From Candidatus Thalassarchaeaceae archaeon (GTDB lineage: Archaea > Thermoplasmatota > Poseidoniia > Poseidoniales > Thalassarchaeaceae), in the NCBI GenBank assembly GCA_013329905.1, contig DUJH01000016.1:22192-67261 (forward strand): a DNA stretch of 45,070 nucleotides, read 5' to 3'. The notes beneath the pieces were generated by a model, which saw nothing but the letters and a program-made list of their open reading frames with translations, had not been told where the DNA came from and searched no databases. Below are positions 38,355-44,318 of the stretch, in pieces (position 1 is the first letter of the stretch; each line of letters starts with the position of its first letter). Both the position numbers and the translations under genes were made by a program.

Positions 38355-38463
38355 CAGGACTAGGAAACTTGCCCAGAATTCATTGATTTCCAGATTCACC
38401 ATTTTCTCGCCGGGTAGTTCAGTTGAAGGCGGATGGGCCTCTCGCAGCCGCGCAGGGTTGGTC

Positions 38464-39780
38464 ATGAAGGTCATCAATGACGCGATACACGGGCAATTTT
38501 CGCTCGATGGTGTTCGTGCAGAGTTACTGAAAACACCCGAGATTAACAAATTGAGTCACATCAAGCAATTGGGTTTGGCCCACCTCGTGTTTCCCGGAGC
38601 CCACCACACTCGCTTCGAACACTCGCTTGGGGTTTCGCATGTCGGTGGAATGATGTCCGACTCGATTGGATTGGATGAGTCTGAGAAGACTCTCGTTCAA
38701 GTTGCAGGGATGCTCCATGACGTCGGACATGGTCCATACTCTCACACCCTTGAACATATTCTGCACGAGCGAGGTGGGCTTGATCACATGTCAATCACTG
38801 AGGGTATCATCGTTGGAGAGTACGATGTATTACGAGAGGGTGAAGAAGCGAGTGTCACCGAGCGACAGCGAATCCCCGACATCCTCGAGCGGCATGGCAT
38901 CGAACCGGATGATGTCGCCGCTCTAATCCGCGGTCCTGATGCGCGCGGAACAGAGCGAACTCTACTCTCATGGACCGATGGTAAGGAGGATCTCGTCTCA
39001 GAGGACCGGACTCTCGGTAATTTGGTCCATGGGCCGGTCGATTGTGACCAACTCGATTACCTACTCCGTGATTCCCACTTCACCGGCGTGAAGCATGGAA
39101 TCGTCGACCATCGCCGCCTCATCTCTTGCCTACGCCGTCACGGCGGCGATGTAGCAGTAGAGGAAGGCGGTCTCGCCGCCCTCGAAGGTATGCTGATGGC
39201 GCGCGGTTTGATGTACAGCGCAGTCTACTTCCACCGAGTCACGCGCGTCACCGAAGTAATGCTCAGTCGCGCTGTCGAGCGCAGTGCTGACGAATTACCT
39301 GACCCGACCGATATGCAGCGTCGAGTCGACGCTGAAATCTGGCAGGCACTTTACGAAGCCGGAGACTACGCTCGAGACATGATGCGCCGGCTGAAATATC
39401 GCCAGATGTTCAAAGTCGCTGCTAGCCGGCGCCAGGACGAGCTTTCCACAACACAAATCCAACAGCTCGTTGAAATCGCCCAAAACTCAGAGAATCGTCG
39501 AGAGGTTGAGGATGACCTTGCCCACCGAGCAGGACTCCCCCCGGGGTACGTCGCTGTTGATGTGCCGAGCGTCAAACTTCTCCTCTCGGAACCGAGGATG
39601 GATGCGGTCGACATCCGAATCATAGGCGACGACAACAGAACCCGTTGGTTCCGCGACCACACACCAATAGCAGAGGCCTTGCGCAAAAGACAAGTTAGCC
39701 AAGCAGCAGTGTATGTCATGACCCTCCCTGGGCACGAGAAGAATGTGGCTCGACTTGCAGAGCGTCATCTCTTCGAATGA
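38464..39780 (+). CDS. HD-domain phosphohydrolase (COG1078 / SAMHD1-like dNTP triphosphohydrolase family)
   Basis: MKVINDAIHGQFSLDG..., TRFEHSLGVSHV and GMLHDVGHGPYSHTLEH (HD metal ligands), and DCDQLDYLLRDSHFTG. ATG 38464 is preferred over the TTG-opened ORF at 38383. Confidence 0.85.
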   Translation: MKVINDAIHGQFSLDGVRAELLKTPEINKLSHIKQLGLAHLVFPGAHHTRFEHSLGVSHVGGMMSDSIGLDESEKTLVQVAGMLHDVGHGPYSHTLEHILHERGGLDHMSITEGIIVGEYDVLREGEEASVTERQRIPDILERHGIEPDDVAALIRGPDARGTERTLLSWTDGKEDLVSEDRTLGNLVHGPVDCDQLDYLLRDSHFTGVKHGIVDHRRLISCLRRHGGDVAVEEGGLAALEGMLMARGLMYSAVYFHRVTRVTEVMLSRAVERSADELPDPTDMQRRVDAEIWQALYEAGDYARDMMRRLKYRQMFKVAASRRQDELSTTQIQQLVEIAQNSENRREVEDDLAHRAGLPPGYVAVDVPSVKLLLSEPRMDAVDIRIIGDDNRTRWFRDHTPIAEALRKRQVSQAAVYVMTLPGHEKNVARLAERHLFE

Positions 39781-39806
39781 TTTCAGTAGTCATCATGGCT
39801 AAATTT

Positions 39807-39823
39807 CATCCCCTATGGGGATG
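39807..39823. repeat. Perfect 7-bp inverted repeat CATCCCC-TAT-GGGGATG, 27 nt downstream of the HD gene stop
   Basis: Read directly from the sequence. Function (termination or processing signal) is not established. Confidence 0.6.
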
Positions 39824-39839
39824 TGTCCTAGATGTATGA

Positions 39840-41282
<1,443 letters not shown>

Positions 41283-41341: not shown

Positions 41342-42085
41342 TCAGTGCTCTTCGTTAATAGAGGAAAGGAATTTTTTCAGTCGATCGGATTTCGGTTCAT
41401 TGACAATTGAGGAGGGACCTTCCTCTGCTACCTGTCCATGATCCATGTAGACGATTCGATCTGCTACATCTCTCGCGAAATGGATTTCATGAGTGACGAT
41501 AACCATCGTCATTCCTTCATCGGCAAGCCCACGAATGGTTTGCAGTACCGATCCAATAAGCTCGGGGTCGAGCGCGCTGGTCGGCTCATCGAAGAGAATC
41601 ACCTCAGGCTTCATCGCTAGCGCGCGAGCGATAGCGACTCGCTGCTTTTGCCCACCTGAGAGATTTCCAGGATAAGCATCGACGCGATCAAGCATATCGA
41701 CTCGTCCAAGTACTTCGAGAGCCACTTCATTTGCCTCCTCTTTACTCATCTTACGAACGTGCCTTAGCCCGAGAGTCACATTATCGAGGACCTTCAGGTG
41801 AGAAAATAACTCGAAGGATTGGAAAACCATGCCGATTCTGCTGCGAACCTCGTTAACATCAGCACTGGGAGTGTTAATCTGTTCATCGCGTAGTAGAATC
41901 GCACCGTCGGTCGGCTCAATCAAACGATTGATGCAACGCAGTACAGTCGACTTACCCGAGCCAGACGAACCGATGATCGCGACCGACTCACCCTCATGTA
42001 CATCGAAGGAGACTCCTCGAACGGCGTGAACTCCGCCTGCGTAGATTTTGTGCAGGTCGCGAATTGAGAGAACGACTTGTGACAT
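41342..42085 (-). CDS. Polar amino-acid-type ABC transporter ATP-binding protein
   Basis: 247 aa. Walker A is GSSGSGKST, the signature is LSGGQKQRVAIARAL, Walker B is ILFDEPTSALD, and there is an H-loop (VTHE). The start abuts the permease stop with zero spacing. Confidence 0.9.
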   Translation of the reverse strand: MSQVVLSIRDLHKIYAGGVHAVRGVSFDVHEGESVAIIGSSGSGKSTVLRCINRLIEPTDGAILLRDEQINTPSADVNEVRSRIGMVFQSFELFSHLKVLDNVTLGLRHVRKMSKEEANEVALEVLGRVDMLDRVDAYPGNLSGGQKQRVAIARALAMKPEVILFDEPTSALDPELIGSVLQTIRGLADEGMTMVIVTHEIHFARDVADRIVYMDHGQVAEEGPSSIVNEPKSDRLKKFLSSINEEH

Positions 42086-44140
42086 TCACGAACCTCCTGA
42101 AATTCCCAAACCTGGTATTCGCGACCAGTCCTCAAGGCGCCTCAACAGCATCGCTAGAGTCCAAGTCACGACAAAGTAGGATATCATCACCAAGCCCCAT
42201 GCTGAGAAGATCTGGAAGGTGGTCGCTACCATCAGCTTACCTTGTCGGGAGAGTTCAGAATATCCGATGACCATCGCTAGAGACGAATTCAACACTAGAT
42301 TGACCATTTCATTCCCAATAGGTGGAATACAGATTCTAATCGCCTGTGGCATAATTATCAACTTCATTGTTCCAATATATGTCAATCCAATACTCCGCCC
42401 TGCTTCCATCTGACCACTTGGAATAGCCGCAATTGCCCCTCGGATTGTCTCACACTGGTATGCGCCAGAGTTGAGTCCGAGCGTGAAAATTGCACTCAGG
42501 AAAGTCCGATCTCCATAGAAGAAGTAGTCGAGGCCGTCCAAACCAGCATCTCCGAATGCCCCCTCGAAGATTTGCTGCAATCTCATCCCCAAACTTAAGC
42601 CGAAGTGGATGAAGAAGAATTGGACAATCAAAGGAGTATTCCTAAAGAAATCGGTGTAGACCGTCGCGAGGGTGTTTAGTGGGCGTACCTTGAATAGAGG
42701 CCCAGAGAGTTTCAAATCCGCAAGACTGAATTGAATTCCCAAGGCCAACAAACCGATTCCGAGTGCAAACATTGCGAAACCTTCTGGGTCACCGACCGGT
42801 GTGAAGATGTACTCCAATCCCTCAAGGCCGAGGGCTCCGAATCTACTACCTCCCGTGTAAATGAGCACCACCGAAGTAACAGAGAGGACCCCTCCTATGC
42901 CTTTGACAATGGATAACTGAACGCCTTCGAAGAGATTCTTGAAAGAGGTTGGAGCGGTCTTCATCATCGCTAGAATAACTCCTATTAAGAAGCCGAACAG
43001 AATTCCGAAGAGGACTACCTTCACAGTGGCGATGAACCCACCTAGTAGCATCTCATCGGCGTATTCAACGAATTCACCGAAGTCATTGTAATCTGGAATC
43101 TCGAATCCAACGCGGTCGTTCTCACCCGCGGATTCGGTGTAGAGGATGACGCCTCCATCTCCAACGACGATTCCGGCCAAGTAATCGAACATGGCGTGAT
43201 CATTGAATGAAGTACTCACGCCTTCCGGCAGAATGTTATCCTCAACATTGAGTCCTTGATCAAGACTCAAACCGAGGAATCCATCTTCTCCTGCGAAGAG
43301 AATCTTGGATGATGAGACCACGTTTAGAGAGCTAAGTGATACTCCCAGAGATGTATTGTATCCCACCGATTCGATTTCCCTTAAATTCCACTCGTAGCCA
43401 CCGACAGAGGTGGAATAGAGAATTTGTCCAGAATCGCTGATAGCGAACATTCGGTATGGATTGAAGTATTCAATGGAGACTAGGGCAGAACCCTCTGCTC
43501 CGGATGGAGTTTCACGGTAATCCCATGACAAACCTCCATCGGTTGTTGCGAGAATCATGCCCTCGTCTCCGACGGCAAATCCATTCAAATCATCACGGAA
43601 AGAAACATCATTCAGATCTTTGTCAAAGACGCTGGTGCGCTCGGTCCAGGTCCCAGTTGAATACTCGAGAATGACGCCTGAATCTCCAACTAGCACCAGC
43701 GATTCGCTCCCAGTCACAGCCAGACTTCTCATGTCCGTACGACTAGAATCAAGAGTCTGCCAATCGGCATTCAGACCCTCCATAAGATAGACCAAACCAT
43801 CCGAGGCAAGAACTGCCATCGAATCCTCGGATGAATCGGCGGCGATTAGGTCGGAATCTCCCAGAGCCGCCTGAATCTCCCATGACAATCCTCCATCCTC
43901 ACTCAATAGAGCCGTTCCGGAATCTCCGAAGACCCAAACAGATTCACCATGAGTCACTGCCGCATTCAGATCCGCATCAGTTCCTGAATCGACGACTTGC
44001 CATCCCGTCTCGATACTCTGACCGACAGCGGGAGCAATCGAGACGACAAGAAAAATGGTGACGAGAAGAGCAACCCTCGACTTTTCATCGAGAGCCGACC
44101 AGGAGAATATCCTCTCTATGCCGGGACGTGTAGTCGTCAC
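42086..44140 (-). CDS. Fusion protein: signal-anchor, BNR/Ycf48-like beta-propeller ectodomain, then polar amino-acid (HisM/GlnP-type) ABC permease
   Basis: 684 aa. The TM anchor is VALLVTIFLVVSIAPAVG. Residues about 44-340 have blade-like repeats with Asp-box motifs SEDGGLSWE and TTDGGLSWD, plus degenerate copies. Residues about 365-684 carry the permease signatures YTDFFRNTPLIVQFFFIHFGL and the EAA loop EAGRSIGLTYIGTMKLIIMPQAIRICIPPIGNEMVNLVLNSSLAMVIGYSEL. Confidence 0.8.
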   Translation of the reverse strand: MTTTRPGIERIFSWSALDEKSRVALLVTIFLVVSIAPAVGQSIETGWQVVDSGTDADLNAAVTHGESVWVFGDSGTALLSEDGGLSWEIQAALGDSDLIAADSSEDSMAVLASDGLVYLMEGLNADWQTLDSSRTDMRSLAVTGSESLVLVGDSGVILEYSTGTWTERTSVFDKDLNDVSFRDDLNGFAVGDEGMILATTDGGLSWDYRETPSGAEGSALVSIEYFNPYRMFAISDSGQILYSTSVGGYEWNLREIESVGYNTSLGVSLSSLNVVSSSKILFAGEDGFLGLSLDQGLNVEDNILPEGVSTSFNDHAMFDYLAGIVVGDGGVILYTESAGENDRVGFEIPDYNDFGEFVEYADEMLLGGFIATVKVVLFGILFGFLIGVILAMMKTAPTSFKNLFEGVQLSIVKGIGGVLSVTSVVLIYTGGSRFGALGLEGLEYIFTPVGDPEGFAMFALGIGLLALGIQFSLADLKLSGPLFKVRPLNTLATVYTDFFRNTPLIVQFFFIHFGLSLGMRLQQIFEGAFGDAGLDGLDYFFYGDRTFLSAIFTLGLNSGAYQCETIRGAIAAIPSGQMEAGRSIGLTYIGTMKLIIMPQAIRICIPPIGNEMVNLVLNSSLAMVIGYSELSRQGKLMVATTFQIFSAWGLVMISYFVVTWTLAMLLRRLEDWSRIPGLGISGGS
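43121..44011 (-). other. BNR (Asp-box) beta-propeller ectodomain portion of the permease fusion
   Basis: S-x-D-x-G-x-[ST]-W motifs lie at residues 80-87 and 199-206. There are repeated G-D-x-G-x-I-L blade patterns (FGDSGTALLS, VGDSGVILEY, VGDEGMILAT, ISDSGQILYS, VGDGGVILYT). Confidence 0.7.
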
Positions 44141-44318
44141 AAGTCAGACGGGTCGAAGTCGGGATATAGACTCGACCCGCGTTGCATCGTACCTTTCACA
44201 CACGAGAGAAATTCTGCTCATGCGGGGCGTTAAAGACAGTCAAATTCCCAAATCTCACTTCTGAAAATGAATTTGAGCATCAGCAATGTTCATCGGCGGC
44301 TGGCGCGGCAGGGGCGAT

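Follow-up and report, generated by a model that had tools for sequence, protein, structure and literature searches.

We found that one open reading frame (ORF) on the minus strand of a 45,070-nucleotide stretch of Candidatus Thalassarchaeaceae archaeon DNA (contig DUJH01000016.1; hereafter, the window) encodes an ATP-binding cassette (ABC) permease of the polar amino acid transport (PAAT) type fused to an N-terminal Ycf48-like beta-propeller. The ORF (42086..44140) starts with GTG and specifies 684 residues; its host is a marine planktonic archaeon of the Marine Group IIb (MGIIb) type. The host group consists of abundant ocean archaea that live on dissolved protein and amino acids and have no periplasm; to our knowledge, the lineage has no cultured representative. 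Import by type I ABC systems is generally taken to require a Venus-flytrap binding protein, and the domains that we know to be fused to type I permeases so far are that binding domain. On balance, we lean towards the reading that the fusion protein belongs to a receptor-dependent PAAT importer, in which the propeller, a linker, and an outward hairpin loop form a platform that guides or selects a tethered receptor. The propeller itself is, most probably, an accessory of unexplained role rather than a stand-in for a binding protein. Our analysis established the architecture and fold of the system, its topology parity and conservation, and its synteny and co-occurrence across genera. Our literature searches turned up no paper describing a propeller–permease fusion, in agreement with the initial annotation of this DNA, which was aware of no characterized ABC importer of this kind. 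The parts of the protein are as follows.

42086..44140, minus strand: whole ORF, propeller-fused PAAT-type ABC permease (domain matches and full-length intact orthologues)
44021..44083, minus strand: signal peptide or signal anchor, residues 20–40, SRVALLVTIFLVVSIAPAVGQ (hydropathy peak 2.24; AlphaFold2 (AF2) helix 19–34)
43106..44017, minus strand: seven-bladed Ycf48-like beta-propeller, residues 42–345, predicted extracytoplasmic (Pfam, AF2, Foldseek, motifs)
43034..43105, minus strand: conserved acidic linker between the propeller and the first transmembrane helix (TM1), residues 346–369, FEIPDYNDFGEFVEYADEMLL (identity 0.72; invariant F354 and F357)
42956..43033, minus strand: TM1 of the permease core, residues 370–395 (hydropathy 2.85; first stretch of TIGR01726)
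42683..42955, minus strand: lineage-specific insert, residues 396–486, a two-helix transmembrane hairpin with the conserved outward loop LGLEGLEYIFTPVGDPEGF (AF2, hydropathy)
42086..42682, minus strand: core TM2–TM5 with TPLIVQ, the EAA loop, and a C-terminal IPGLG motif (BPD_transp_1, residues 482–668)

The beta-propeller that had been proposed for the N-terminal region stood up to profile, model, and fold comparison. PSII_BNR matched at 51.3 bits (cut-off 27), AF2 arranged residues 42–345 into seven four-stranded blades with a predicted local distance difference test score (pLDDT) of about 80–93, and the best 12 Foldseek matches in the Protein Data Bank (PDB) were all Ycf48, with template modelling (TM) scores of 0.71–0.77 over ~300–330 columns at 16–18% identity. 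The Pfam BNR model gave 16.1 bits (cut-off 27) for the propeller, which has two canonical Asp-boxes. Every motif listed in the initial annotation was recovered, namely the Asp-boxes SEDGGLSW (residue 80) and TTDGGLSW (residue 199), five [GS]DxGx[IA]L blade motifs (residues 72, 152, 191, 235, and 327), TPLIVQ (residue 502), and the EAA loop. In the three genomes checked (G000, G027, and G045), the propeller was the sole PSII_BNR match, indicating that, judged by profile, it is a dedicated part of the permease in these genomes and not a general surface module. The closest propellers outside permeases were repeats in giant bacterial YCF48-related proteins of surface type, which gave no functional lead.

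The membrane domain matched BPD_transp_1 over residues 482–668 at 54.9 bits, well above the cut-off of 26.4. TIGR01726, the N-terminal three-helix signature of His/Glu/Gln/Arg/opine permeases, scored 52.2 bits (cut-off 42.2), the match being broken into two stretches by the hairpin insert. The polar-amino-acid permease with an extra hydrophobic insert after TM1 was confirmed; the insert measured roughly 90 residues, with hydrophobic helices at residues 409–432 and 452–472 in both AF2 and hydropathy. The EAA loop, EAGRSIG, begins at residue 579 (residues 579–598, positions 42347-42406), and E579, A580, G581, R582, S583, and G585 were invariant in 51 sequences. The best NCBIfam models were a cystine permease (135.9 bits against 300) and GlnP (118.5 against 303), and EhuC, HisM, and ArtQ were also matched below their cut-offs. 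Since no equivalog cut-off was reached (GlnP, TcyL, EhuC, HisM, or ArtQ), the substrate cannot be assigned from these models.

In the AF2 model, which was built on a 51-sequence alignment, the membrane-domain helices were clear and ran in the order TM1, two extra helices, and TM2–TM5, the EAA helices falling between TM3 and TM4. Lys and Arg abounded in the loop that follows TM1 and in the one that follows the second extra helix, and the loop between the extra helices was acidic. The EAA loop must be cytoplasmic; counting helices backward from it, and given that the two-helix insert keeps the parity, the propeller is predicted to lie outside the cell, at the position that the binding domain occupies in GlnPQ-type fusions. 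This placement, too, had been suggested earlier. The outward loop of the hairpin, LGLxGxExIFxPVGDP, was near-invariant (L437, L439, G441, E443, I445, P448, V449, G450, and F455), while the insert as a whole ranged from about 80 to >300 residues among genera and was absent from the relatives whose permeases are ordinary or fused to PKD domains. Both the hairpin loop and the linker occurred only in the propeller fusion and were better conserved than the propeller, which suggests that the propeller is integrated with the membrane domain.

We then assessed how widely the fusion is kept among 251 genomes sampled across the order, 124 from the family of the window and 124 from its sister family. The same ORF was intact in 82 of the 124 genomes of the family, showing that the fusion is real in relatives, and none of the 124 sister-family genomes sampled yielded it. 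By genus, it was present in g1 (17/17), g4 (17/17), g6 (10/10), g8 (19/20), g12 (12/13), and g13 (7/7), and in none of the 19 other sampled genera. A word-indexed search returned 294 homologues; the full-length ones listed shared the two-domain architecture at 41–100% identity and 653–918 residues. Where named, they came from Thermoplasmatota, Euryarchaeota, Thalassarchaeaceae, or Poseidoniales metagenome-assembled genomes, under the database names "ABC transporter permease subunit" or "hypothetical protein". Precomputed domain annotations of homologues also list PF25852. Shorter database entries were truncated gene calls that still held propeller blades or TM1, and five candidates for stand-alone or unfused close relatives (P0146, P0211, P0279, P0287, and P0278) were rejected as truncated calls of the same fusion.

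Conservation, taken as mean identity across 50 homologues, was highest in the core membrane domain (0.81), followed by TM1 (0.77), the linker (0.72), the outward loop of the hairpin (0.68), and the propeller (0.54), with the rest of the insert lower still. In distant members, the propeller fell to 0.41, against 0.71 for the core membrane domain. The invariant residues of the propeller were mostly Gly and Trp, i.e., structural. On a permease tree of 23 loci, the g4 and g6 labels were not monophyletic: the g4 locus of G007 grouped with G195 and G085 (g6), and those of G055 and G125 (g4) grouped with other g6 and g8 loci. The gene may have moved between genera, paralogues may be hidden among the loci, or the backbone may be poorly resolved.

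The search for a receptor led away from the locus. The SBP_bac_3 profile for substrate-binding proteins (SBPs) found no match in the window or the rest of its contig, which upheld the earlier statement that no binding-protein gene belongs to the unit, and the only matches in the genome were on contig C32, in the following gene.

G000 contig C32:6476-9694, minus strand: triple binding protein, 1025 residues, lipoprotein-like (SBP_bac_3 and two Peripla_BP_6 matches)

This protein has a signal ending in AAFAGC, an N-terminal SBP_bac_3 module, and then two LivK-type Peripla_BP_6 domains, and its gene lies in a Liv-type operon with a 1300-residue LivH/M-like fused permease and two further ORFs. The 1300-residue frame (C32:2460-6362, minus strand) resembles a LivH/LivM-type permease fusion with large non-membrane inserts; the two ORFs after it look like Liv ATPases.

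The C32-type module was 71–97% identical across g1, g4, and g8. R76, G120-T121-T122, and D160 are invariant in it and coincide, in alignment, with the Arg, GT, and Asp that bind ligand in the first substrate-binding domain (SBD1) of GlnP and in AncCDT-1; with this signature intact, the module looks ligand-competent. It is circularly permuted, residues 50–214 corresponding to residues 106–277 of a canonical SBP and residues 222–278 to residues 16–87; in canonical numbering, the module as a whole runs through 91–277 and then 16–87. Its best PDB match was the SBD1–SBD2 tandem of GlnPQ (chain residues 42–270), to which it aligned colinearly across the domain boundary, as expected of a segment cut from a tandem duplication; this suggests that the module arose through permutation by duplication. 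In addition, it resembled the SBPs of the PKD-permease systems (E 2e-16) far more than the AapJ-like SBP of its own genus (E 0.03).

The module shared its genus distribution with the fusion: g1 (15/17), g4 (17/17), g6 (10/10), g8 (20/20), g12 (13/13), and g13 (7/7). The LivK-type proteins of genera without the fusion had no such module, with one exception (G117). Among these genera, g5 had single LivK-type proteins of 394 residues and g10 proteins of ~780 residues, and g9 gave no SBP_bac_3 match.

Beyond the fusion family, past a sharp drop in similarity, the nearest membrane domains were those of ordinary ~220-residue permeases and of two PKD-domain fusions.

L049:1079-2413 and L050:960-2018: PKD-fused PAAT permeases, with one or two N-terminal PKD domains

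These two uncharacterized metagenomic proteins (P0350 and P0377) were 39–40% identical to the membrane domain, and the C-terminal IPGLG motif was common to them and the fusion. They also carry a signal peptide and a non-SBP ectodomain at the same N-terminal position. By domain match, this permease lineage thus bears two kinds of non-SBP ectodomain, PKD being the second. The PKD-permeases differ in having no propeller and no hairpin insert, and in that both loci hold a canonical, colinear SBP_bac_3 gene immediately upstream, with the ATPase gene downstream.

Inside the propeller clade, some relatives hold a further SBP_bac_3-like gene between purC and the permease gene, divergent from the latter.

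L025:7686-8666, minus strand: anchored SBP_bac_3-like gene (orthologues in L029, L031, L034-L036, L040, and L048)

Its product of 323–326 residues has a signal peptide, scores above the SBP_bac_3 cut-off, and is anchored in the membrane by its C-terminus. The gene was present in g6 (5/5 loci), g12 (2/4), and g4 (1/3), and absent from the locus in g1 (5/5), g8 (4/4), and g13 (2/2). It was not found elsewhere in the five genomes searched for it (G027, G023, G035, G087, and G055), which include one single-contig assembly and one that is 97% complete; there, the C32-type module was its sole relative. Therefore, the possibility of an adjacent binding-protein gene in orthologous loci, which the initial annotation had raised, held patchily (in three of the six genera) and did not hold for this genus. 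On an outgroup-rooted permease tree, the loci with this gene formed three distinct clades with good support, and loci without it stood in between. The position and orientation of the gene were constant, and its orthologues had diverged to 34% identity. From the tree, the simplest reading is that the gene is ancestral and was repeatedly lost, in this genus among others. The anchored protein is also circularly permuted (residues 191–292 to AncQR 22–115; residues 54–144 to AncQR 147–231), with breakpoints that differ from those of the C32 module. The Asp that binds the alpha-amino group is replaced by Ser or Pro in 6/8 orthologues, and a standard alpha-amino acid is, from its binding residues, an unlikely ligand for it, if it has one.

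Non-SBP ectodomains and binding proteins thus occur together within the clade as well as in the outgroup, which argues that the propeller probably did not arise as a receptor replacement. The earlier proposal that the propeller replaces the receptor was not sustained, given the SBPs kept by the PKD outgroups, the adjacent SBP-like gene in three genera, and the module on C32, which belongs to the same permuted lineage as the SBP-like gene lost in this genus. The milder proposals of the initial annotation, recruitment of a receptor or tethering of the transporter, may hold.

We propose that the permease and ATPase genes encode a homodimeric type I PAAT importer, with the permease and the GlnQ-type ATPase present in two copies each. 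Each copy of the permease comprises, in this order, the signal or anchor, the propeller, the acidic linker, and a seven-helix membrane domain made of the five canonical helices and the hairpin. The propeller would be an accessory ectodomain, and the receptor would most likely be the C32 SBP_bac_3 module on its lipid-anchored protein. The tethered module would bind a polar amino acid and settle on the outside of the permease dimer, on a lineage-specific docking platform or guide formed by the propellers, hairpin loop, and linker; ATP hydrolysis would then drive import. Which protein is the partner, that the propeller serves in docking, and what is transported are all inferences.

Several observations weigh against this proposal. 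The evidence that pairs the C32 module with the permease is indirect, and the two genes are unlinked, lying ~0.87 Mb apart in G027. Related genomes are not independent, so the phyletic coupling may represent one or a few evolutionary events, and G117 (86% complete) has the module and no detectable PAAT permease. A canonical AapJQMP-like PAAT operon, complete with a colinear SBP of 423 residues, is also present in the genus, and the module could serve that operon instead of the propeller-permease. In the anchored SBP-like protein, the alpha-carboxylate-binding Arg of the TxxR motif is replaced by Val, Ile, or Met in 8/8 orthologues, which makes that protein weak evidence for an ordinary receptor. 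The membrane domain of the AF2 model had low confidence (pLDDT 40–60; predicted TM score 0.47), and contacts between the propeller and the membrane domain could not be read from it, while the model of the C32 module, from an 8-sequence alignment, reached a pLDDT of 28 and was discarded.

Alternatively, the propeller may stand outside the transport cycle, as a spacer or as a tether under the surface layer or to an extracellular polymer or particle. In the relatives, this position is taken by PKD domains, which are typical surface modules of archaea; the closest non-permease propellers occur in giant surface-type proteins; and the propeller is the least constrained large part of the protein in sequence. 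However, the propeller never comes without the linker and the outward hairpin loop, both of them conserved and unique to the fusion, and it is the sole such propeller in the genome rather than a general surface module. We consider this alternative unlikely.

It is quite unlikely that the propeller and the extra outward loops are the receptor itself, making the system a binding-protein-independent type I importer where the SBP-like gene was lost. A natural type I importer that can do without such a protein is not known to us. The PKD-permease outgroups retain canonical SBPs, and a conserved, ligand-competent-looking SBP_bac_3 module co-occurs in all six genera. Moreover, the propeller evolves faster than the core in distant members, and its invariant residues are mostly Gly and Trp. 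This alternative nevertheless fits the loci of g1, g8, and g13, where no SBP gene is found; in the five genomes searched, none of the anchored type lies elsewhere. The adjacent SBP-like gene also looks dispensable, being repeatedly lost and devoid of the canonical Arg, and the propeller is intact in 82 genomes at the site of the GlnPQ binding domain. The closest fold, Ycf48, binds a peptide tail, going by the title of PDB 5ojr.

A ligand relay has a precedent in AztD of Paracoccus denitrificans, a periplasmic beta-propeller that transfers zinc directly to AztC, the SBP of an ABC importer (PMC6689063). By analogy, the propeller here would capture a ligand, or a peptide or protein precursor, and pass it to the tethered binding domain; the peptide-binding Ycf48 fold is in keeping with this. 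Both systems have a beta-propeller as an extracytoplasmic accessory of an SBP-dependent ABC importer. However, AztD is a separate, soluble zinc chaperone of a cluster A metal importer, not of a PAAT system, and handles a metal rather than an amino acid; our propeller has no sequence relation to it, and no conserved polar pocket was identified in the propeller. Such a relay is very unlikely. Finally, an assembly or frameshift artefact joining two separate genes is practically negligible, given that the ORF runs on without a stop in 82 genomes from the six genera and in ~290 database proteins that derive from many separate assemblies.

We compared the receptor-dependent importer with known systems. 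It shares with Art(QN)2-ArtJ, HisQMP2-HisJ, and GlnHPQ the five-helix core with the EAA loop, the TIGR01726 signature, and a HisP/GlnQ-type ATPase. The permeases of these systems have ~220 residues, no ectodomain, and no insert, and the canonical PAAT SBP is made as a protein of its own, either soluble or lipid-anchored, whose gene usually lies in the operon. Of the features of a PAAT type I permease (TC 3.A.1.3), BPD_transp_1, the EAA loop, TIGR01726, and the adjacent ATPase gene were all found, and an SBP_bac_3 gene alongside was not. With Ycf48/HCF136, a free-standing photosystem II assembly factor in the lumen or periplasm of oxygenic phototrophs, the likeness is one of fold. MGII archaea are not known to be oxygenic phototrophs, and the role of Ycf48 in D1/photosystem II assembly has no counterpart in these genes; the propeller here is fused to an ABC permease instead. 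The seven-bladed fold is the same (TM score 0.75–0.77 to PDB 2xbg and 5ojr) and PSII_BNR is matched, but identity is only 16–18% and the equivalog model NF010237 scored 59.7 bits against a cut-off of 326. GlnPQ of Lactococcus lactis likewise has a homodimeric permease and ATPase, a signal and an extracytoplasmic domain fused N-terminally to a GlnP-type domain, and a GlnQ-type ATPase. Its extracytoplasmic part is the SBD1–SBD2 tandem (PDB 6h30 for the SBDs), whereas here there are a Ycf48-like propeller, an extra two-helix hairpin, and a candidate binding domain on a separate lipoprotein. As the ORF holds no SBP_bac_3 domain, it is not a GlnPQ-type fusion.

These abundant ocean archaea carry a different fold, the Ycf48-like propeller, together with new outward loops, permanently fused to a permease. 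If the propeller guides or selects tethered receptors, it would add a new layer of control over substrate delivery in cells without a periplasm; the conserved MGIIb triple binding protein may then feed two transporter families, PAAT and hydrophobic amino acid transport (HAAT), with the propeller as a dedicated docking site. If the propeller binds substrate itself, the binding-protein rule would be broken. Either way, the fusion is a defined, testable target in an uncultured lineage.

The surroundings of the permease gene in the window are as follows.

41342..42085, minus strand: GlnQ/TcyN-type ABC ATPase, 247 residues (ABC_tran, 131.6 bits)
39918..41282, plus strand: gdhA, convergent to the transporter genes (ORF list and Pfam)
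44286.., plus strand: purC, divergent, separated from the permease gene by a 145-bp spacer (ORF list and Pfam)
44141..44285, no strand: divergent intergenic spacer between the permease gene and purC (sequence and synteny comparison)

The zero-spaced ATPase gene, the convergent gdhA, and the divergent purC were all as the initial annotation had placed them. In NCBIfam, the ATPase scored 285.7 bits with the GlnQ model, under the equivalog cut-off of 379, and 273.8 bits with TcyN. The permease–ATPase junction reads GGAGGT-TCG-TGA-ATG; the spacing is zero, and GGAGGT lies 6 nt upstream of the ATPase ATG. This Shine–Dalgarno-like element and the zero spacing fit translational coupling of the two genes. 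The spacer next to purC holds a TATA-like element, TCTATATCC, about 24–28 nt upstream of the permease GTG start, and in relatives the spacer is the site of the anchored SBP-like gene. A leaderless start is predicted for the two-gene unit.

The order HD-gdhA-ATPase-permease-purC was largely kept across the 23 loci examined. In the window, the HD-domain protein (HD and HD_assoc_2) and gdhA adjoin the transporter genes at 38383-41282; both were neighbours in most sampled loci of 4/6 genera, and the stretches sampled for g8 and g13 had neither. Together with the similarity to GlnQ and GlnP, the conservation of gdhA next door is a weak hint that the substrate may be Glu/Gln-like.

The AapJQMP-like operon ruled out the idea that the propeller-permease is the only PAAT permease of the genome. 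SBP_bac_3 matches of ~410–550 residues were also considered as GluR0-like channels and rejected, the G027 gene being a colinear LAO-type SBP in this operon. Between that SBP gene and the two permease genes lies a 403-residue ORF without a Pfam or NCBIfam match (L027:3675-4886, minus strand, G027), and the two permeases, at 343 and 550 residues, are far longer than canonical ones.

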